Below are positions 818 to 63,123 of a stretch of 64,000 nucleotides of DNA, in pieces (position 1 is the first letter of the stretch; each line of letters starts with the position of its first letter). The DNA is from Octopus sinensis (taxonomy: Eukaryota): positions 32,550,001 to 32,614,000 of the forward strand of contig NC_043002.1 in assembly GCF_006345805.1 (NCBI RefSeq), read 5' to 3'. The translations under genes and the position numbers were made by a program. Under the pieces are notes generated by a model, which worked only from the letters and a program-made list of their open reading frames with translations, made no database searches and had not been told where the DNA came from.

Positions 818-1033
818 TATATATACATACATACATACATACATACATACATACATGCATACATAGAGTAAGTTTACAAAAGACAAAAGACGAAGACGGG
901 TGTGTAAATAATAAACAGATGTATTACTTTAACACTCGTGAAGTGAGAAAGTCTTTACGTTTCCAGCCTACGCTCTTCGACAGAAAGGGAAACAAAAATA
1001 AACAGGGAGAGAAATATATACGTATATACATAC

Positions 1034-21825: not shown

Positions 21826-24800
21826 TACAGACGAATATAGATCTGCTAGTCTTAAGAAGCGGCGCTATGAGCAATGCTTACATGTAGTGAACCCTAAACT
21901 GACAGAGCCATCTCCTAATATAAGAATGGATGCTCGTCATGCTTCAAGGTCAACAAATCAAACAATAAACCGCATTGGTCATTGCGCGGATTACAAAAGA
22001 CCACGTACCCGAAAATTGAACCAAATCCTGATTGAAAAATCAGTTACTGGATCAAATCTTCCCAACACACAGGAGCTGGACGAACCCCACAACCGGAATA
22101 TTCAACAGATGGCATCCATGCTTATCCCAAATAATCAAAAGAAAAAGAAGGAAAAATGGTCTAGGGAAGATAATAAAGAAGTTCTTGAGGCTTCTACCAT
22201 GCCATATATTTCCCCACAGATAAGTCTAGCACTGTACAAGCATACTTAAACTGGAGACAGAAACACCCTGAAGTAAGACCCTACATAGACAGTAACAAGC
22301 TTGCCAATGTTAGAAGAAACATTATAAAAAGAAATTACTGACTGAAGTAGAGATTGATCAGGTTAGACAAGCAATATCGGATAAAATGAACGAAGCTGCA
22401 GCTAGAGAAGATAATACAGAGGAAATGATTATAGACCAGCCCAGGGCGGATAAAAACGAAGAGAGGATTGAAAGAGTTAGTATAAGTGATAGGCAAAGTG
22501 AAATACGCCTGAACCAATCATAAACACTAAGACAGATGAGCATCAAATAGATAAAGAAAGTCACACAAATATTGACCCAACAGAACTACATGAGCTAAAA
22601 AATCAAATCATGATTGAATGGCTGAAAATTAAAGAAACCAGCATGGATGAGCGTGATACACTTCCTAAAATCCGCAACTCTAACCAAAACATGAAAATAA
22701 TTGGTAAAATCCGGCTTGCACTTAAGGATATAATTTCAGTTAATGATGTTGATATCACAAACCTCAACCACCTATACTATGCATCCGCGAAAATCTCAAC
22801 GATCCTATGTGGTGTAAAGATTAGAAAACGGCAACAGTCCCACAAAAAGCCTTCTTGGCAAGAGCGTCTGCAACAACAAATTAAAGTATTTAGATCTGAC
22901 ATTGAATATTTGAAAAACCTTAAGGCTCACAAGACTACCAAACCTACAAAAACCCAAAAATTACTGAAAAAATACAATATGAAAACTATACTTGATATTG
23001 ATGCCACCATAGAAACCATCAAACAAAAGGTATCTGCCAAAGCTGCCCGCATAGCGAGGTATGAAAAGCGTGTTAGATTTTTCAAGGACAACAACATGTT
23101 CAAAAATAACACCAAACATTTTTACAGGAAGATAGGAAAAACAGCGTTTACTGCAGGGTCTGTACCATCAAAAGAAGAAGTGCAGAGATTTTGGAATAAA
23201 ATCTGGGCAGAAGAAAAAACACACAACGAAAAGGCCCCCTGGATTGACAGAATATCTACAGAACTGGACCCCTTAGAAGAGCAAAAGTGGGGGGGTCAAG
23301 GTAGAAGATATAAGATCTGCTCTCAGGAGGTCAAGCAAATGGAAGTCTCCAGGAAAGGATAAAATTCCTAACTTCTGGCTGAATGCCTTCCCAGAGAGCC
23401 ATGAACTGCTAACAGAACTGTACAATGATGTTTTGCAACACCCTAGTAGGATGCCTCCTTGGCTAGTTAATGGGTTAACATTCCTGCTTCCAAAAAGTGA
23501 AGAAACAAATGAACCAAAAAACTATAGACCCATAACCTGCTTAACAACTATGTACAAAACACTAACATCTGTCCTGACGGAATATACCTTAGTTTTTTAA
23601 CAGACAGCAGCATATTCCCTAATGAACAGAAAGGATGTAAACGTGGATCCTACGGCTGTAAAGACCAACTACTCATCAATAAGATGATCTTAGAAGATTG
23701 TCACAAAGGACACAAAAACTTATCAATAGCCTGGATAGACTATAAAAAAGCTTTTGATAGCCTACACATAGCTGGATTAGGAAATGCCTTGAAATGTATA
23801 AGATAGCACCAACTCTGCGAAACTTCTTGACTGTAAGTATGAGATCATGGAGAACCACACTAACTCTGAACAGTGACAGTGAATCCCTAAATGCTGGTGA
23901 TGTAAAAATTTCGTGTGGCATTTTCCAGGGTGACTCACTGTCACCACTCCTCTTTTGTTTATCCTTAATACCTCTCTCAAAGCTGCTCAATGACGCGCAG
24001 TACGGGTATAAAATGTTTGATAAAAATATAAATCATCTCGTTTACATGGATGATTTAAAGCTTTTTGCAAAAAATGATCAACAACTCAAGGGCTTACTAG
24101 CGATAGTCAAACAATTCAGTGACGACATCAGAATGCAATTCGGCCTCGATAAATGTGCAAAGGCTACCTTTATCAAAGGAAAAATGACAGAAACATAACG
24201 TTAACCTTGACCAACAGAATGTCATAAAAGAACTAGACCAGCGGAGACTACAAGTACCTAGGGGTAATTGAAGGGAACGGAATAAGGCATTCAGAGATGA
24301 AGGAAAGGATCAGAGAGAATGCTATCGAAGAGTGAGAGCATACTCAAGACAGAGCTGAATGCAAGAAACAGGATCGAAGCAATCAATGCATTAGCTATAC
24401 CAGTCGTGACTTACAGTTTCAATATTGTTAACTGGTCAATTACTGAAATATGTCAGCTCGACAGAAAAATAAGGAAACTGTTGACAATGCATAGAATGCA
24501 CCACCCTAAGGCAGATACAGAACGACTCTATCTGCCAAGAAAAGAGGGAGGCCGTGGTCTTTTGCAACTGGCAATAACAATGAAGATTGCTACAATTGGC
24601 CTAGACACCTACCTGAAAAACTCTGAGGACTGGATGTTAAAACTTGTCTCAAAACATGAAAACAAGAAAGCATCATACTCAGTCACAAAACAGGCAAAGG
24701 AATATGTAAGTGAATTCCGAATACAACCAATTTCGGAATTAGAGATAGACATACAAGAAACAAGCACAGAAAAAGCTAGGCGCATGAAAACCCGTGCCAA

Positions 24801-25815
24801 AACTGCGGCCTTAGATATTCTGAAAAATAAATGGCAAGAAAAACCTCTCTATGGCAAATACCCAAAGAGAGCGAATAATGCAGATATCGACAAAGCCCTG
24901 ACCCATCAATGGCTAATGGCCTCTGGCTTAAAATCTGAAACAGAGGGGTTTATCATAGCAGCTCAAGATCAATGCCTACCAACAAGAAACTACCAGGCCA
25001 ACATATTAAAGATCAGAAGCAGTCAACGTGTCGTGTATGCAAGCAACAAAATGAAACCATTGACCATGTGGTCTCCAAGTGCAGTCTTCTAGCGCCTACA
25101 GAGTATCTCAACAGGCACGATAGAGCTGCACAATATATTCACTGGGTAATCTGTAAAAACCTGGATTTGCCCCATGAAAAAAACTGGTGGGAACACAAAC
25201 CACCCCCAGTGCTTGAAAATGACCACATCTCACTCCTCTGGAACTTCACCATTCAAACTGACAGGAAGATAGATGCAAATAGGCCAGACATCATATTGAA
25301 AGACTTCAAACAAAGAACATGCCTCCTCATTGATATGACTGTCCCAATCGATATAAACGTATCTGTCAGGACCTACCAAAAACTGAGCAAAATAAAGATC
25401 TTGAAATAGAAATCAGCAAAATGTGGAAGCTGAAGACTAAAACAATACCTGTTGTCATAGGTGCCCTGGGAATGATAGCAAAAGGGGCTGATAGCTACCT
25501 AACTCAGATACCAGGAAACCCAAAAATGGCAGAAGTTCAAAAGATAGTGCTCATGGGAACTGCTCATATCCTACGCAAAATACTCTCTATGTAACCTCAA
25601 GTTTTAAAACAACCATAATTTTCGGTTTAAAAAAAAAAAAAAAAAAAAAAAAACTTTTTTTTTTAGACATTCATTAGTACAACATCCCCACCCCCCAAAT
25701 ATATGGCACACTAGGCATAACAACAACATGAACTTCCAACCCTGTTGTCTCTTGAGGTCTCTGGGTGAGACTTGGAGCCAACTTGTACAAATATAAAGCA
25801 AAAGTCAAACATAGA
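21826..25815 (+). mobile_element. Near full-length RLE non-LTR retrotransposon, R4/Dong-like, inserted in (TAA)n
   Basis: RT motifs (GIFQGDSLSP, YMDD, FGLDKC), CCHC knuckle (CRVC..ETIDHVVSKC), RHD and RPD..D endonuclease. The ORF is broken by several frameshifts and is flanked on both sides by (AAT)n. Dong elements are known to target TAA repeats. Confidence 0.88.
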
Positions 25816-37916: not shown

Positions 37917-38119
37917 CTGTAAATATATTGAAATCAATGACAATTAAATTACTCACAAAAATTTATTTACTTAAAAATGTTTCATATATAAACACTGAAA
38001 GCAGATGAAAGATTTAAACAGTTAGTCGATATTAGTGTACAATATTGCAATATTGAGCAAATATATATGTATATATATATATATATATATATGATTGACT
38101 CTTAGCTCCAAAAGCTTTT

Positions 38120-38275
38120 TATATTCTCTCTGTTTATTTTCTCGTGTTCCTTTCTGCTGAAGAGCTTAGGCTCGAAACGTAAAAGACTTTCTCACCTCCC
38201 CGAGTGTTAAACTAATACACCTGTTTTTTGTTTATACACCTGTCTTCGTCTTTTGTTTTTCTGTAAGTTCCAACT
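38120..38275 (+). repeat. Short solo copy of the same hammerhead-like family (motif 38150-38185); another copy at about 868-1015 (-)
   Basis: CTTT-CTGCTGA-A-GAGC-TTAG-GCTC-GAAAC-GTA-AAAG followed by ...taatac...cacctgtcttcgtcttttg. Confidence 0.7.
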
Positions 38276-41277: not shown

Positions 41278-42039
41278 CTGAGAAGTAAAAAGAAGATAGT
41301 CGTTATTTCTTTCTTAAATGAGAATAAGATCCATTTTTTCACATTAACAATAATCACCAATCTATATATAATAGAATGCAAGAAAAACACTATATAAAAT
41401 ATAAACAATAAAATTTTATTTCATTCCATTTAACAGGTTTTTATGCGAATAGATCCATAATAAATTACAATAATTGATACATGATACAAAGATATAAAGA
41501 CAACATCCATCTTTACATTCATACATATATGCATACATGTTTGTGTGAGAGAGAGAGGGGGAGGGATAACTTCTGCCTTTTTATTTGCTTCTGCTATCTG
41601 ACAGCGGCCCTGCTGGAGCACCGCCTTTAAGGGTTTAGTAGAACAAATGTTCCCATTCCTTGTCTTTCTAAGCCGCGTACTTATTCGTTTTTTTTAATCC
41701 TTTCGCCCAACGGCTAAGTTACGGGGACGTAATCAAACATAAACCTGTTGTCAAGCGTTTGTGGGAGATGAACAAATGGACAAAAAACATACAAACACAC
41801 ACACACATATTCATTCATTTTTTATTATTTACTTGTTTCAGTCATCCGACTGGCGCCAAGCTGGAGCACCGCCTTAATGGGTTTTAGTGGAGGAAATCTA
41901 TAAGTTTCTTTTGCCGAATCTGCTAAGATACAGGGATGTAAACGTACCAATATCAGTTGAAAAGAGATGGTGAGAGGGGAAACAGACACAAAGGAACGCA
42001 CACATAAATACACACACGTACACACAAAGACACACAGTT

Positions 42040-43340
42040 CACAAATGAGTACAACTAAAAGGAGCTTCCATTCTTAGATATACTGATTAAAAAAATTAAC
42101 CTAAAAATAGAAACAGACATATTTTACAAAACCACAGACGCCAAACAATACCTACGTTTTGATTCATGCCACCCAAGACACACTAAAACAAACATCCCTT
42201 TCAACGTTGCAAGGATATGCACAATAGTGTCAGAACAAAATACCAGAAACTTTAGACTACAAGAACTCAGAAGCACCTTAATTGACAGACACTACCCAGT
42301 TCAACTCATAGAGGATGGAATCAGACGTGCAACAGAGATCGACATAGAAACTTTAAGAAAAGTTCAACACACCAGTACACCTTCCCCGAAAATACTGCCT
42401 TACATATCCACATACAACCCCAGAAACAAAGAAGCCTTCGCCATCATCACCCAGAATTTACCAATGCTTCATAAGGACCCCAAATTAAAGGAAATTCTTA
42501 ACATACATAAAATCATTAAAAGCTACAAACAACCTAAATCACTAAAAAAGATTCTCGCAAAGGCAAAATTGTATTCTGAAATTACGGATGCAAAAGTAAA
42601 AATATGTGGTAGACCAAACTGCGCAACATGCCCAAACCTTCTAGAAGGATCAGTATTCCTCTTCAAAGAGGGACAAAAATTCAAGATCAAATCTAATTTT
42701 ACTTGTGCTTCAGAAAACCTAATTAATGTCATAAGATGCTTGGGCTGCCACCAACACTACATAGGGTCCACGGGATTATCGCGCAGACGCAGATGCACTC
42801 TGCATAGAAAACAGATTGCATTCCCAGAATACAGAATGATACACTTTAGTGGACATATTGAGAAATGCGCAAAGCAACTTCTACCACAATTTTTAATCTT
42901 TCCATTCTATCAATGTGCTATTGGAATACCAACACAAATTAGATTAAAAAAGGAAACATTCTTCATTGAAAAATATAAACTAAAACTTAATCTTTCTAAG
43001 ATTTATATACAAGGAAACTCATCCCATTGAAAAAAATAAAAAAATATAAAGCGATTATCTCCCTTGTACCGGAAGAAATCCCTGATTACCTTCTCCTGCC
43101 TGGAACTCTTCACTTCATGCGAAGATATGCATATATACATACATATACGTACATACTTACATCTATACGTATATTCATATGCATATGTGAGCACAGGACG
43201 AAACAAAACATAAACAACGAAAATATGAAGTACGGGGACATGGAATATGAACTTTTTTGCGAACAACGAAAGAAACAAATGGTAAACAAGACAAACAACA
43301 CAAAGAATGACCCTTCATCAGTTGTTTCGAAATAAGGATT
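42040..43340 (+). mobile_element. Penelope-like element, 5'-truncated (RT C-terminus, Zn-linker, GIY-YIG endonuclease)
   Basis: LPFLDILI...DIFYKTTD..QYL.FDSCHP upstream of ORF 42227-43030, which carries CGRPNCATC and NVIRCLGCHQHYIGSTG..RRRCTLH. Confidence 0.85.
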
Positions 43341-44619: not shown

Positions 44620-44789
44620 TTCACTTCAACATGTAAATATAATTTGTCAAAATATTTTCGTCGCTTTGAGACCGCCACCTTTTGAGTGACAAAATTCCGT
44701 GTTGCATCACGTAATTTTGTCAGTGAACAGGTCGCGGTCACAAAGCGACGAAAATATTCTGACAAATTAAATTTAAATGTTGAAGTGAA
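44620..44789. repeat. About 170-bp imperfect palindrome; each arm has a decayed hammerhead-like motif
   Basis: Arms acttcaacat...tttgtca / tgacaaa...atgttgaagt. Confidence 0.8.
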
Positions 44790-47109: not shown

Positions 47110-47573
47110 CAGTTGAGTATCTAGTTGAATTTCTCAACTCTCTCCAACCTACAGGACTGCCACCGCTTTAGTTGTTCCTAAAGAAAGGCGCACCTATCAT
47201 GCTCTTGAGGAATTTCGACCCACCACGACTATGCAATGGTACAAGATTGACTGTAACTACAATAGAAAGTCATGTCCTTCAAGCAACCATTATTGCTTGC
47301 CGTCATCGAGGAGAGATCGCATACATTATTCCCTCAAATCTGCCATTTCAATTCACGCGCCTCCAGTTCCCAGTGCGATTGTGCTTCGCTATGACAATCA
47401 ACAAAGCCCAGACTTTAAAAATTGTGGATCTCAATTTACAAATAACCTGCTTTTCTCATGGACAATTATATGTCGCACGCTCTCGAGTTAGCAGTACAGA
47501 TGACATGTATATTTATTCTGTCAATACTTGGCTCACGCAAAACATAGTTTACCCAGAAGCATTGTCAGTTTAA
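47110..47573 (+). mobile_element. Helitron PIF1-like helicase C-terminal fragment
   Basis: LKKGAPIMLLRNFDPPRLCNGTRL, QFPVRLCFAMTINKAQ, CFSHGQLYVARSRV. Confidence 0.88.
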
Positions 47574-48883: not shown

Positions 48884-49503
48884 CTAAGGTGCAAAAATAA
48901 GGTTATGATTAAAATTTTTGTGAAAACTACGCTCGTACAATTTTTGACATTCCTTTCCTAAAAGGGAAAACTTCTTATTACAACAAAATAGTATTGTTAT
49001 CGCAATCATCGATCGCAGATGAATCTTATCAAGAAGATATGTCACAGATTGTGATCGCTCCACTTTTCCTAGAACCACTATTTTACATTAAGTTTAGCTC
49101 TCTTTTTAATAACTTTAAATTACATAATATAATTCAAAAATATTACCAAACTTTCTGCTATTAATTTTATAAGATGGATCCTTAATTTGATTTTATATTT
49201 ATATTGACTTCCCTTTATAATTTTTCGGCCAGCCGATAATATCTTAACAATTTATACCCCACAAATGAACATACGTTTTCGGCAGTGTAACCACATTTCA
49301 TTTCAACCGATTTATTACAAAAAGAAACAGTGAATCAATTCTAAGCAGTAAAATATTTTGAAATAAACTAAAAATTTACGTTGATGGAAACTATAAATTC
49401 AGTAGGAATGAATCGGCATTGCTAAATAGATTTTCTTTTTTTAATTTGGTAAACTTAAAATAATTATATTCATGAGATTAAATATAATGTGTAATTAACT
49501 TAC

Positions 49504-50730: not shown

Positions 50731-51776
50731 TCAACAGAGGAGTCTAGTGCAATCCATAGGCAGGAAAGGTACAACTGAAGTGTAGAAAGTCCAGTAAAGA
50801 ATCTGTAGATGTTCATGGGTGATGAGAGGAGACAGGATCAACTGGTGTGACCATGTGAGCGTGTAATATATAATGAGACTTCACAAAAAAACAAAAGACG
50901 AAGACAGGTGGTGTAGACAACAAACAGATGTATTAGTATAACACTCGGGAAGTGAAAAAAGTCTTTAACGTTTCGAGCCTACGCTCTTCCACAGAAAGAA
51001 AGAACAGCCAGAGTAGGAAGAAATGACAATAGGAAAAAGCAGAAAGTACAAAAAAAGTTTAGAAAGTATAAAAAAGTTACGAAAAGTTCAAAAGGTTCAA
51101 AAGCTTCAGAGGTCGTGGTGTATTGGAGCGATTTTTCGTCAACAGAGGAGTCCAGTGTATTCCATAGGCAGGAGAGGTGCAGCTGAAGTGTAGAAAGTCC
51201 AGTAGGGAATCCGTAGAAGTTCGTGGGTGATGAGAGGAGACAGGATCGACTGTGTTCTTCCTTTCTGTGGAAGAGCGTAGGCTCGAAACGCTAAAGACGT
51301 TTTCACTTCCCGATCGTTATACTAATACATTTGTTTGTCGTCTACACCACCTGCCTTCTTTTTTTTTGTTAATTCTCCCCATATATTACACGCTCACGTG
51401 GTTGGACTAGTTGATCCTGTCTCCTCTCATCACCCACGAACTTCTATGGATTCCCTACTGGACTTTCTACACTTCAGCTGCACCTCTCCTGCCCATGGAC
51501 TACACTGGACTCCTCTATTGATGAAAAATCGCTCCAATACACCACGACGTCTGAAGCTTTTGAATCTTTCGTAACTTTTTGATACTTCCTAAACATTTTT
51601 GTACTTTCTGCTTTTTTCTTATTGTCGTTTCTTCCTAATCTAGTTGTTCTTTCTTTCTGTGAAAGAGCGTAGGCTCGAAACGTTAAAGACTTTTTCACTT
51701 CCCAAGCGTTATATTAATACATCTATTTGCTGCCTACACCACCTGTCTTCGTCTTTTGTGTTTTGTGAATTCTCCT
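50731..51776. mobile_element. Head-to-head array of a roughly 392-408-bp unit (about 1.3 units on -, about 1.3 on +), with hammerhead-like motifs; retrozyme/PLE-like
   Basis: 50731-50850 is repeated at about 51139-51252 and the orientation flips at about 51253. Motifs lie at 50963-50998 (-), 51261-51296 (+) and 51653-51688 (+). Confidence 0.7.
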
Positions 51777-56685: not shown

Positions 56686-57371
56686 CTATGACAAATAAAA
56701 AACATGTTATATAAAATCGTCCTAACGTATGACAGGTTCATTTCGAAATTTCTAAGGATTTCTGTCCTTTTTTTTTTTCTTCCCCAAATCTACGTTCAAG
56801 GAAATATAGATAAGGAAGAAGCTGTTGGGAACTGCGAGGTACGCAATATAGTTAAGATAACTCTAGTATATATGTTAAGAGGTGCTAGAATAGAGTCTTT
56901 GAAGGTGACTAAATGCTATGAATTTTACTAGCAAACGATAGGCGTAGAGTGAAAGACAGTAGTTGATGTATGATATGAGGGCGCTACAATATATAGAACA
57001 AAATGTTAACTATATTTTAAGGAACCCCTACTATATTTAGACATATAAATATAACGAAAATGTGTATAAAAACAAGCAGCTTCATAGAGAAACATTAAGA
57101 AAAAACAAAGTATAAAATTATAATTATATAGCAGTAATATTGCATCTCAAATTGTGGGTACGACCTATAACGGTGACGCAAAATACAGGTATCGACAAAG
57201 GATATTCTCTTGAATAAAATTAATTATATATATAAAGGAAGACAATATATGCAAGGAGGGCAAACATGAGAATCAAATTTGGCAACATAGGCCATAATTC
57301 TGCGTTCAACTAATTTCGAGCGACAGTATTTAATTTAAGTCAAGTTCGATAGGTGGTTATTATATACATAC

Positions 57372-60300
57372 CATTATTCAGTGATGTTGCAAAACTTGCT
57401 GTCGTGGTATGTAACAACTTCTTTGTTGATAGAGCGTCAGTTGTTACATCGCTATACATGGAGGAGCTTGAATATTGCGATGAGGGAAGCATACTATTCT
57501 CTGTCGAAGGGGTGATTCTTGTTACGTTTGATGAAATAGAGAATGTTGAATATGGTGTTGAGGGTGGTGTGACCTTGTCAGATGATGGGACCAATGTTGT
57601 TACATCTGATGACATGGAATCACTTGAAATTTGTGTTGAGGGAGGTGTAGTCATGTATGTTGATGGAGCTTTAGTTGTTACGTGTGAAGATATGGAATCA
57701 CTTGAAATTTGTGTTGAGGGAGGCGTCGACATATCTGTTGATGGGGCATCGGTTGTTACATCTGATGACATGGAATCATTTGAATATCGTGTTGAGGGAG
57801 GTGTAGTCATGTCGGTTGGTGGTGCATCGGTCGTTACATTTGATGACAAGGAATCATTTGAATATTGTGTTGAGGGAGGCGTCGTCATGTCTGTAGATGG
57901 AGCATCGGCTGTCACATCTGATGACATGGATTCACTTGAAATGTGTGTTGATGGAGGCGTCATCATGTCTGTAGATGGAGCAGCGGTCGTCACATTTGAC
58001 GACATGGAATCACTTGAATTGTGTGTTGAGGGAGGCGTCGTCATGTCTGTAGATGGAGCAGCGGTCGTCACATTTGACGACATGGAATCACTTGAATTGT
58101 GTGTTGAGGGAGGCGTCGTCATGTCTGTAGATGGAGCAGCGGTTGTCACATTTGACGACATGGAATCACTTGAATTGTGTGTTGAGGGAGGCGTCGTCAT
58201 GTCTGTAGATGGAGCAGCGGTTGTCATATTTGACGACATGGAATCACTTGAATTGTGTGTTGAGGGAGGCGTCGTCATGTCTGTAGATGGAGCAGCGGTT
58301 GTTACATCTGATGACATGGAATCATTCGAATATCGTGTTGAGGGAGGTGTAGTCATGTCGGTTGGTGGTGCATCGGTCGTTACATTTGATGACAAGGAAT
58401 CATTTGAATATTGTGTTGAGGGAGGCGTCGTCATGTCTGTAGATGGAGCATCGGCTGTCACATCTGATGACATGGATTCACTTGAAATGTGTGTTGATGG
58501 AGGCGTCATCATGTCTGTAGATGGAGCAGCGGTCGTCACATTTGACGACATGGAATCACTTGAATTGTGTGTTGAGGGAGGCGTCGTCATGTCTGTAGAT
58601 GGAGCAGCGGTCGTCACATTTGACGACATGGAATCACTTGAATTGTGTGTTGAGGGAGGCGTCGTCATGTCTGTAGATGGAGCAGCGGTTGTCACATTTG
58701 ACGACATGGAATCACTTGAATTGTGTGTTGAGGGAGGCGTCGTCATGTCTGTAGATGGAGCAGCGGTTGTCACATTTGACGACATGGAATCACTTGAATT
58801 GTGTGTTGAAGGAGGCGTCGTCATGTCTGTAGATGGAGCAGCGGTTGTCACATTTGACGACATGGAATCACTTGAATTGTGTGTTGAGGGAGGCGTCGTC
58901 ATGTCTGTAGATGGAGCAGCGGTTGTCACATTTGACGACATGGAATCACTTGAATTGTGTGTTGAGGGAGGCGTCGTCATGTCTGTAGAAGGAGCAGCGG
59001 TTGTCACATTTGACGACATGGAATCACTTGAATTGTGTGTTGAGGGAGGCGTCGTCATGTCTGTAGATGGAGCAGCGGTTGTCATATTTGACGACATGGA
59101 ATCACTTGAATTGTGTGTTGAGGGAGGCGTCGTCATGTCTGTAGATGAAGCAGCGGTTGTCACATTTGACGACATGGAATCACTTGAATTGTGTGTTGAG
59201 GGAGGCGTCTTCATGTCTGTAGATGGAGCAGCGGTCGTCACATTTGACGACATGGAATCACTTGAATTGTGTGTTGAGGGAGGCGTCGTCATGTCTGTAG
59301 ATGGAGCAGCGGTCGTCACATTTGACGACATGGAATCACTTGAATTGTGTGTTGAGGGAGGCGTCGTCATGTCTGTAGATGGAGCAGCGGTTGTCACATT
59401 TGACGACATGGAATCACTTGATTTGTGTGTTGAGGGAGGCGTCGTCATGTCTGTAGATGGAGCAGCGGGTGTCATATTTGACGACATGGAATCACTTGAA
59501 TTGTGTGTTGAGGGAGGCGTCGTCATGTCTGTAGATGGAGCAGCGGTTGTCACATTTGACGACATGGAATCACTTGAATTGTGTGTTGAGGGAGGCGTCG
59601 TCATGTCTGTAGATGGAGCAGCGGTTGTCACATTTGACGACATGGAATCACTTGAATTGTGTGTTGAGGGAGGCGTCGTCATGTCTGTAGATGGAGCAGC
59701 GGTTGTCACATTTGACGACATGGAATCACTTGAATTGTGTGTTGAGGGAGGCGTCGTCATGTCTGTAGATGGAGCAGCGGTTGTCACATTTGACGACATG
59801 GAATCACTTGAATTGTGTGTTGAGGGAGGCGTCGTCATGTCTGTAGATGGAGCAGCGGTTGTCACATTTGACGATATGGAATCACTTGAATTGTGTGTTG
59901 AGGGAGGCGTCGTCATGTCTGTAGATGGAGCAGCGGTTGTCACATTTGACGACATGGAATCACTTGAATTGTGTGTTGAGGGAGGCGTCGTCATGTCTGT
60001 AGATGGAGCAGCGGTTGTCATATTTGACGACATGGAATCACTTGAATTGTGTGTTGAGGGAGGCGTCGTCATGTCTGTAGATGGAGCAGCGGTTGTAACG
60101 TTTGATGACATGGAATCATTTGAATATTTTGTTGAGGGAGAAATAAACTTGTCTGTTGATGGAACATCGGTTGTTACACCTGATGACATGGAATCATTTG
60201 AATTGTGTGTTGAGGGAGGTGTGGGCTTGTTTGTTGATGGAGCAGCGGTTGTTACATTTAATGTCATGAAATTATTTGAATATTGTGTTGAGGGAGGTGT

Positions 60301-63002
60301 GGAGTTGTTTGTTGATGGAGCAGCGGTTATATCATTTGATGTCATGGAATTATTTGAATATTGTGTTGAGGGAGGTGTGGAGTTGTTTGTTGATGGAGCA
60401 GCGGTTGTCATATTTGATGTCATGGAATTATTTGAATGTTGTGTTGAGGGATGTGTGGAGTTGTTTGTTGATGGAGCAGCGGTTGCTACATTTGATGTCA
60501 TGGAATTGTTTGAATATTGTGTTGAGGGATGTGTGGAGTTGTTTGTTGATGGAGCAGCAGTTGTTACATTTGATGTCATGGAATTATTTGAATATTGTGT
60601 TGAGGGAGGTGTGGAGTTGTTTGTTGATTGAGCAGTGGTTCTTACATTTGATGTCATGGAATTATTTGAATATTGTGTTGAGGGAGGTGTGGAGTTGTAT
60701 GTTGATGGAGCAACGGTTGTCACATTTGATGTCATGGAATTATTTGAATATTGTGTTGAGGGATGTGTGGAGTTGTTTGTTGATGGAGCGGCGGTTGTCA
60801 TATTTGATGTCATGGAATTATTTGAATGTTGTGTTGAGGGATGTGTGGAGTTGTTTGTTGATGGAGCAGTGGATGTTACATTTGATGTCATGGAATTATT
60901 TGAATATTGTGTTGAGGGATGTGTGGAGTTGTTTGTTGATGGAGCAGCGGTTGTCACATTTGATGTCATGGAATTGTTTGAATGTTGTGTTGAGGGATGT
61001 GTGGAGTTGTTTGTTGATGGAGCGGCGGTTGTTACATTTGATGTAATGGAATTATTTGAATGTTGTGTTGAGGGATGTGTGGAGTTGTTTGTTGATGGAG
61101 CGGCGGTTGTCATATTTGATATCATGGAATTATTTGAATGTTGTGTTGAGAGAGGTGTGGAGTTGTTTGTTGATGGAGCAGCGGTTGTCATATTTGATGT
61201 CATGGAATTGTTTGAATGTTGTGTTGAGGGATGTATGGAGTTGTTTGTTGATGGAGCGGCGGTCGTTACATTTGATGTCATGGAATTATTTGAATGTTGT
61301 GTTGAGGGATGTGTGGAGTTGTTTGTTGATGGAGCGGCGGCTGTCATATTTGATGTCATGGAATTGTTTGAATGTTGTGTTGAGGGATGTGTGGAGTTGT
61401 TTGTTGATGGAGCAGCGGTTGTCACATTTGATGTCATGGAATTGTTTGAATGTTGTGTTGGGGGATGTGTGGAGTTGTTTGTTGATGGAGGGGCGGTTGT
61501 CATACTTGATGTCATGGAATTGTTTGAATGTTGTGTTGAGGGATGCGTGGAGTTGTTTGTTGATGGACCAGTGGTTGTTACATTTGATATCATGGAATTA
61601 TTTGAATGTTGTGTTGAGGGAGGTGTGGAGTTGTTTGTTGATGGAGCAGCGGTTGTTACATTTGATGTCATGGAATTATTTGAATATTGTGCTGAGGGAT
61701 GTGTGGAGTTGTTTGTTGATGGAGCAGCGGTTGTCACATTTGATGTCATGGAATTGTTTGAATGTTGTGTTGAGGGATGTGTGGAGTTGTTTGTTGATGG
61801 AGCGGCGGTTGTCATATTTGATGTCATGGAATTATTTGAATGTTGTGTTGAGGGAGGTGTGGAGTTGTTTGTTGATGGAGCAGCAGTTGTTACATTTGAT
61901 GTCATGGAATTATTTGAATGTTGTGTTGAGGGATGTATGGAGTTGTTTGTTGATGGAGCAGCGGTTGTTACATTTGATGTCATAGAATTATTTGAATGTT
62001 GTGTTGAGGGATGTGTGGAGTTTGTTGTTGGAGCAGTGGTTGTTACATTTGATGTCATGGAATTATTTGAATGTTGTGCTGAGGGATGTGTGGAGTTGTT
62101 TGTTGATGGAGCAGCGAATGTCACATTTAATGTCATGGAATTGTTTGAATATTGTGTTGAGGAATGTGTGGAGTTGTATGTTGATGGAGCGGCGGTTGTC
62201 ATATTTGATGTCATGGAATTATTTGAATGTTGTGCTGAGGGATGTGTGGAGTTGTTTGTTGATGGAGCGGCGGTTGTTACATTTGATGTCATGGAATTAT
62301 TTGAATGTTGTGTTGAGGGATGTGTGGAGTTGTTTGTTGATGGAGCGGCGGTTGTCATATTTGATGTCATGGAATTATTTGAATGTTGTGTTGAGAGAGG
62401 TGTGGAGTTGTTTGTTGATGGAGCAGCGGTCGTTACATTTGATGTCATGGAATTATTTGAATGTTGTGTTGAGGGATGTGTGGCGTTGTTTGTTGATGGA
62501 GCGGCGGTTGTCATATTTGATGTCATGGAATTATTTGAATGTTGTGTTGAGAGAGGTGTGGAGTTGTTTGTTGATGGAGCAGCGGTCGTTACATTTGATG
62601 TCATGGAATTATTTGAATGTTGTGTTGAGGGATGTGTGGCGTTGTTTGTTGATGGAGCGGTGGTTGTTACATTTGATGTCATGGAATTATTTGAATGTTG
62701 TGTTGAGGGATGTGTGGAGTTGTTTGTTGATGGAGCAGCGGTTGTCACATTTGATGTCATGGAATTATTTGAATGTTGTGTTGAGGGATGTGTGGAGTTG
62801 TTTGTTGATGGAGCGGCGGTTGTCATACTTGATGTCATGGAATTATTTGAATATTCTGTTGAAAGAAGTGTTATTTCTTCTGTTGATGGCGTGTCTGCTC
62901 TTACATCTGATGTCAGTGTTACACCTGATGAGAGACCTGAGCTTTCGTCTGTTGATTGATCGTTTGCCATCTGATTTGCCATAAAGGAGGTTGAACTTTC
63001 TG
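57372..63002 (-). CDS. Giant PTS mucin exon (5631 nt, phase 1-1), Ser/Thr/Pro/Asn-rich 26-aa tandem repeats
   Basis: Within ORF 57340-63066. Proposed acceptor ttattctacag|CA at 63002 and donor AATG|gtatgt at 57372. Length is divisible by 3. Confidence 0.88.
57450..62900 (-). repeat. Coding 78-bp (26-aa) VNTR, about 70 units in two subtypes: A AAPSTNNSTHPSTQHSNNSMTSNVTT (about 60240-62860) and B AAPSTDMTTPPSTHNSSDSMSSNVTT (about 57600-60230)
   Basis: The 78-nt periodicity is directly visible (e.g. 58561 vs 58639) and in the translation. Confidence 0.95.
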
Positions 63003-63123
63003 CTGTAGAATAAGAATAGACACCTTCTGTTACTCCATTAACACACTCCATATGAAGAATAAACATTACAAAATTAGTATGAATATTTCATCTACCGTTG
63101 CCAGAGACATTTCTGATAATCAG

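Follow-up and report, generated by a model that had tools for sequence, protein, structure and literature searches.

The numbering of hammerhead positions and the NUH rule are established knowledge. The closest described relatives of the motif reported here are the minimal hammerheads (min-HHRs) of Penelope-like elements (PLEs; Cervera and De la Pena 2014, PMC4209133), which share with it the type I topology with a short helix I, one additional nucleotide placed between 9 and 10.1, the G10.1-C11.1 pair, the palindromic 15.2-16.2, U-rich upstream and AU-rich downstream flanks, a seat in both pseudo-LTRs (pLTRs), and thousands of solo truncated copies. Compared with the consensus in the supplement of that paper, our motif agrees at every position but A6. 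Here U6 runs throughout a whole amplified clade, whereas the core change noted in the text consulted from that paper is U3-A8 only. The min-HHRs are described as cleaving weakly and as dimers (PMC4209133).

Three other systems are relevant. EN+ PLEs of the Neptune/Nematis type (Craig et al. 2021, PMC8557442) have the same frame of reverse transcriptase (RT) plus C-terminal GIY-YIG endonuclease, pLTRs, a CX2-5CxxC linker, a pair of cysteines within the GIY-YIG domain, tandem and inverted 5'-truncated insertions and (TA)n targets, all of which recur in the element described below; the non-canonical hammerhead core sets it apart from them. Animal non-LTR retrozymes (Cervera and de la Pena 2020, PMC7229834) consist of tandem 300-500-nt units with a type I motif, as is also seen here, and are reported to be pLTR-derived (bioRxiv 10.64898/2026.07.22.740005). 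They carry the canonical motif, however, whereas here the motif is of the minimal PLE type, with no fixed unit, shared junction or compact fold. Phage Bcep176 has a natural A6C hammerhead (Perreault et al. 2011, PMC3088659), likewise substituted at position 6, but it is a single phage motif with C and a measured low activity, whereas here, from sequence only, U6 is fixed across over 14,000 copies that span several lineages.

Minimal hammerheads of PLEs and the variability of these motifs are already known, as are mini-insertions of fold-back form and tandems derived from pLTRs; the new part is a fixed A6U core in an amplifying PLE family, which we did not find in the literature searched, and an earlier mention may exist in Lunse et al. 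or in supplements. Searches for a hammerhead with A6U brought up only a twister paper, and searches for hammerheads together with octopus Penelope-like elements brought up one paper, with no such motif in the part available. The main text of an octopus repeat annotation (PMC13282606) contains neither 'hammerhead' nor 'ribozyme'.

We analysed a 64,000-nucleotide stretch of Octopus sinensis DNA, here called the window. The features considered are as follows.

873..1012, minus strand: solo 5'-truncated PLE end between microsatellites, with a decayed U6 motif at 953-987
38100..38270, plus strand: solo PLE end truncated at the 5' side, whose motif at 38150-38185 is a C6 point mutant
50731..51251, minus strand: inverted arm, in the order 5' UTR piece, junction, motif, tail, 5' UTR again
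50963..50998, minus strand: U6 motif, intact apart from U6
51261..51296, plus strand: minimal type-I hammerhead-like motif with U6, of the N7=G subfamily and also with U16.1>C; published PLE min-HHR consensus except A6
51297..51381, plus strand: PLE 3' tail downstream of the motif, the usual element end lying about 100 nt past the predicted cut site
51382..51646, plus strand: first ~260 nt of the PLE 5' UTR, body sequence that normally follows the upstream pLTR
51640..51660, plus strand: locus-specific deletion junction joining 5' UTR to motif
51653..51688, plus strand: second U6 motif, with G8>A, a broken catalytic position
51689..51776, plus strand: PLE 3' tail running to a (TA)n microsatellite

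An earlier note on this DNA had described five hammerhead-like motifs in which position 6 is never A, and all five are present at these coordinates and strands, with U in four and C in one. Of these, only 50963-50998 is intact apart from U6; the other four carry further changes, which in the 953 motif are C11.1>G and one absent A and in the 38150 motif a loop change in addition to C6. An alternative register for the 38150 copy with a CTGAAGA core was dropped, as the flanks align this copy to the family. A fuzzy motif search found five motifs in the window and none in each of 20 mononucleotide shuffles, and the five are far beyond chance. No hammerhead appeared among the 150 listed of 187 Rfam matches to the window, or in three local matches; a CUGANGA descriptor misses the U6 core by definition, as the note had anticipated.

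To the note's question of whether A6 is substituted throughout the family, the genome gives a clear answer. A motif pattern with positions 6 and 7 left free had 14,782 exact genome matches, and its reversed control had none. U6 was present in 99 and C6 in one of the 100 listed of these matches. The CUGANGA core with A6 that belongs to the PLE minimal hammerhead was found in only 157 genome matches as against 14,782 (1.1%), and 15 of these loci, representing 14 places, had flanks of ordinary subfamilies when fetched. The A6 matches are scattered over the subfamilies, as scattered point changes would be. Copies not selected on the core gave the same result: among 97 (99 segments, less two sister-family members), U6 was present in 91, C6 in two and A6 in one, and three had a one-base deletion. 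U6 was also present in all 20 copies anchored on the tail and in 18 of 19 anchored on the UTR. Contigs of runs X17 and X18, from two coded organisms (D and E), cover position 6 of the young element and show no difference there, so U6 is not an assembly artefact. Neither a circular joint nor a pile-up of ends appeared when contigs were aligned to the young element, although contigs can reveal neither of the two; the accompanying variant table omits even the known N7 variants, and its lack of an entry for position 6 was given no weight. The genome-wide counts and the unselected copies show that A6 was replaced family-wide while the stems and the remaining core were kept, a fixed state and not decay. 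The note had also allowed for a fixed A6C core, which these data do not bear out: C6 is a copy-specific point change, seen in two of the 97 unselected copies.

The autonomous PLE sharing this pLTR, for which the note had called, was found with RT and GIY-YIG frames and the motif in both pLTRs. Upstream of the motif, two loci continue into a GIY-YIG frame, and one continues into an RT. In a genome search with this endonuclease, 150 scored out of 15,792 candidates were 96-100% identical, with open frames of up to 1009 aa, and the top 30 loci had a median DNA identity of 99.5%, a value biased toward young copies as these are the best matches. The motif lay downstream on the sense strand in 30 of 30 endonuclease loci, with a one-base deletion in two, and in each of the 12 longer stretches examined. 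With a related endonuclease as the query, the motif lay downstream at 16 of 30 loci, always with U6. Both direct repeats (pLTRs) of L080, L081 and L086 contain the motif, and the repeats are 96.0, 96.1 and 99.0% identical, respectively; together with the fold-back in the window, these supply the pseudo-LTRs and the tandem and inverted truncated insertions typical of EN+ PLEs. The copies terminate at microsatellites, and in 50 of 57 the end lies 92-109 nt beyond the predicted cut site.

The 1009-aa open frame of L080 has the single-ORF arrangement of RT plus C-terminal GIY-YIG. It matches RVT_1 with an E of 1e-7 and GIY-YIG with an E of 4e-4, the latter sub-threshold at 21.1 bits against a cut-off of 22.6, and it contains DKG and YIDD motifs and, before the endonuclease, a CxxxxCxxC linker of the Neptune/Nematis CX2-5CxxC form. 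Its homologues carry PF00078/PF01541, and its best database relatives are about 55% identical. Placement as Neptune/Nematis-type rests on the linker and domain features, our tree containing no named references of either clade. By its frames and copies, the element is a very abundant, recently copied EN+ PLE, and the window repeats are its ends.

More distant PLE families, 25-45% identical, also appeared in a Pfam GIY-YIG search of the genome. One distant PLE family (L231, L230, L233, L220 and L223) has several 781-aa open frames and, 3' of the endonuclease, tandem repeats of about 70 nt with CCAAT-like and TGACGTC motifs; a relaxed scan recognised no hammerhead in its 3' region. The window itself holds a 3' fragment of a distant PLE at 42035-43130 on the plus strand (over 279 aa it shares 28% identity with the L080 protein), with a degenerate hammerhead-like stretch downstream near 43070. 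Other elements in the window are a broken LINE RT fragment at 22502-25409 (minus strand), a Pif1-helicase (helitron-like) fragment at 47172-47573 (plus strand) and a hairpin element of about 165 nt at 44623-44786.

The locus at 50731-51776 had been proposed in the note as a member of a retrozyme family with a unit of roughly 392 nt. Its geometry is as described: the two plus-strand motifs are 392 nt apart, and the minus arm (50731-51251) adjoins, in inverted orientation, the plus arm (51253-51776), which holds both of them, at 51252/51253, with about 90% identity between the arms. The unit, however, is composed of about 125 nt of PLE 3' end and a 5' UTR piece of about 260 nt, which is linked to a 3' end once more. 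The 51382..51646 segment can be aligned with what comes after the upstream pLTR in L080 and, at 81%, with L124, and copies homologous to it continue into the N-terminus of the PLE ORF in L122 and L123. The locus lies between minus-strand exons encoding mucin-like repeats and NIDO, VWD and EGF domains, and is therefore probably intronic. The host gene includes a 1915-aa open frame with Ser/Thr-rich mucin repeats and NIDO, VWD and EGF domains (window 57340-63087, minus strand) and further exons at 49495, 37591 and 7101.

A non-autonomous retrozyme family, in which the 392-nt unit would be cut into monomers and circularised, has some features in its favour. The junction at 51640..51660 is also present on the minus arm at 50983-51011, and this sharing implies that a tandem mini-template was copied, at least once. 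The layout of end plus UTR recurs in 15 of 21 distinct close motif pairs among the sampled loci, and the reported pLTR origin of animal retrozymes is in keeping with it. Against this, the junction has two exact genome matches, both inside the window, and a third match with two mismatches is, by eye, an ordinary upstream flank. Spacings of close motif pairs range from 377 to 685 nt with differing junctions, and 392 occurs at the window locus only. Both tandem motifs of the plus arm are broken at essential positions, so that a shared monomer with a complete motif per unit is lacking, and the motif is of the minimal PLE type. A compact circular fold was also rejected: the circular monomer folds at -48.6 kcal/mol, no better than 40 shuffles (-54.4 +/- 4.5; z +1.3). 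The copied tandem mini-template, which belongs to an older N7=G subfamily, founded no family, and for a family we consider the retrozyme reading highly improbable and already largely refuted. Two other loci, L267 and L130, carry three-unit tandem arrays of PLE end plus 5' UTR with units of 447-465 nt, which are the nearest to retrozyme-like arrays among the loci examined.

Comparison of four subfamilies indicated constraint on the motif. Only 2 of 36 motif columns differ between them, compared with 53 of the 128 columns in the flanks (Fisher p 1.8e-5), a contrast to be read with the flank count inflated by definition of the subfamilies on proximal tail motifs, one subfamily with three members, 15 of 140 copies outside the four, and (indel) columns that are not independent. 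Fifteen fixed differences fall in the distal tail, a region unused for subfamily definition. The two motif columns that differ are N7 (U, G, A, C) and H17 (U, U, A, A), with no case in which G is fixed at H17. The rest of the minimal-hammerhead scaffold is present: helices I and II, the extra nucleotide after A9, G10.1-C11.1, the palindromic helix III and NUH. Stem II is invariant and so gives no covariation signal, and stem I shows one compensatory change with respect to sister families, in that 64 of 78 U6 copies have C-G as the outer pair, with G-C as the pair in the A6 sisters (14 of 20 and 3 of 3 copies).

These data bear on the possibility that A6U killed the ribozyme in an ancestor and that the motif has since been carried passively as a functionless relic. 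The known sensitivity of this position would fit such a history, as every single substitution in the CUGA turn of a type III hammerhead left low activity (PMC9901934) and a natural A6C hammerhead has a kobs of less than 0.1/min (PMC3088659); Naiad PLEs, moreover, proliferate without canonical hammerheads (PMC8557442). A relic would not be expected to remain fixed, as this motif has, while the endonucleases of most older copies diverged to 76-90% identity and the flanks changed, and in four runs reads are deepest over the motif, compared with the flanking sequence. Conservation between lineages disfavours the relic reading, to which we give very little credence.

Sister families share the scaffold and differ in the core. 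Most of the 13,446 matches to an A6 sister-family pattern share stem II, GAGC/GCUC, with the U6 family, and among the first 30 matches position 4 was C in 16 and U in 14. About half of the copies of the sister PLE ends (L164-L193) have a CCGACGA (U4C) core, which is too common for CpG decay, judged by the other CpG sites there. A PLE frame with an RT 63% identical precedes one C4 copy by 2.8 kb, with low-complexity DNA between, and this copy likely belongs to that frame. A further group among L164-L193 has a CUGAAGA core and a different loop. We built an endonuclease tree with 28 rows, in which all 14 rows with U6 group as one clade (support 96/96), and the two A6 rows, one of which covers 32% of the columns, adjoin it with 99/99 together. 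This position of a single U6 clade beside A6 sisters indicates that U6 was derived once.

Traces of cleavage in the genomic copies were sought at both ends. Boundaries at the 5' end fell at the predicted cut site in 31 of 47 matches compared with 37 of 78 in a control window (5-position windows, by eye), which is no excess, and a scripted recount of the first 30 of each set gave 20 and 16, respectively. In the tail- and UTR-anchored listings the 5' boundaries were scattered, with a few near the cut site. None of 57 copies had its 3' end there. At L301-L303, a 56-nt tandem repeat has a unit that begins one base before the predicted cut site; as a single locus, this phase is probably chance.

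The missing footprint is what would be expected if cleavage had been abandoned and the hammerhead, catalytically dead, were kept as a structure or sequence recognised by the PLE protein, or as a promoter or target element at the DNA level, with U6 favouring an extended hairpin. Folding of the youngest subfamily is consistent with this, since a non-hammerhead hairpin is predicted in which U6 and U7 pair with A15.1 and A14 at a probability of about 0.9, the full alternative pairing being U4-G16.2, G5-C15.2, U6-A15.1 and U7-A14. The loop GUAG is invariant across subfamilies as well, the sister family tolerates U4C, and in an anole PLE, whose hammerhead needs the element's protein in order to cleave, catalysis was dispensable for insertion in vitro, hammerhead mutants still being inserted (PMC11167929). 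The alternative pairing is weak, however, where N7 is A, C or G (probability 0.14-0.33), and the variable positions are only the two left free by cleavage chemistry. We regard a dead fold as a serious but less probable alternative.

The reading that we favour on balance, from comparison of the copies, is that the motif is the pLTR minimal hammerhead of an EN+ PLE lineage, with U6 nearly throughout, and that it forms a weakened, probably protein-assisted self-cleaving fold under selection. It is preferred to a non-catalytic fold because no positions vary other than the two that the chemistry leaves free. Against it stand the low activity of hammerheads changed at position 6, the missing cleavage footprint and the competing hairpin predicted for the youngest subfamily. 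The lineage would keep the hammerhead fold under selection, an argument that concerns the motif and not U6 itself. Tandem transcripts may pair two motifs through the ACGU palindrome, the element's own protein may assist folding, in line with the protein-dependent cleavage in the anole PLE, and cleavage after GUU or GUA would be slow. Most cDNA would be copied from uncleaved RNA, which would relax the demand on the U-turn. The 50731-51776 locus is read as a single old insertion, of fold-back form, whose tandem template had lost an internal part, and it is likely dead now.

PLE hammerheads are poor cleavers and were dispensable in an in vitro transposition system (PMC11167929). Here a recently amplifying lineage has changed and fixed a nearly invariant core base while keeping all other hammerhead constraints, and searches based on CUGANGA under-count such motifs. 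A6, U6 and C4 on one scaffold constitute a natural allelic series with near-intact autonomous elements, which makes the choice between a catalyst and a protein-binding fold directly testable. We advance only tentatively the stronger proposal that the CUGU-turn hammerhead works as a ribozyme under selection and is rescued by forming dimers and by the protein of the retroelement itself. If this is true, then together with the U4C sister family it would mean that U-turn variants regarded as nearly inactive are being explored by PLE hammerheads, and that whole families have escaped searches based on descriptors.
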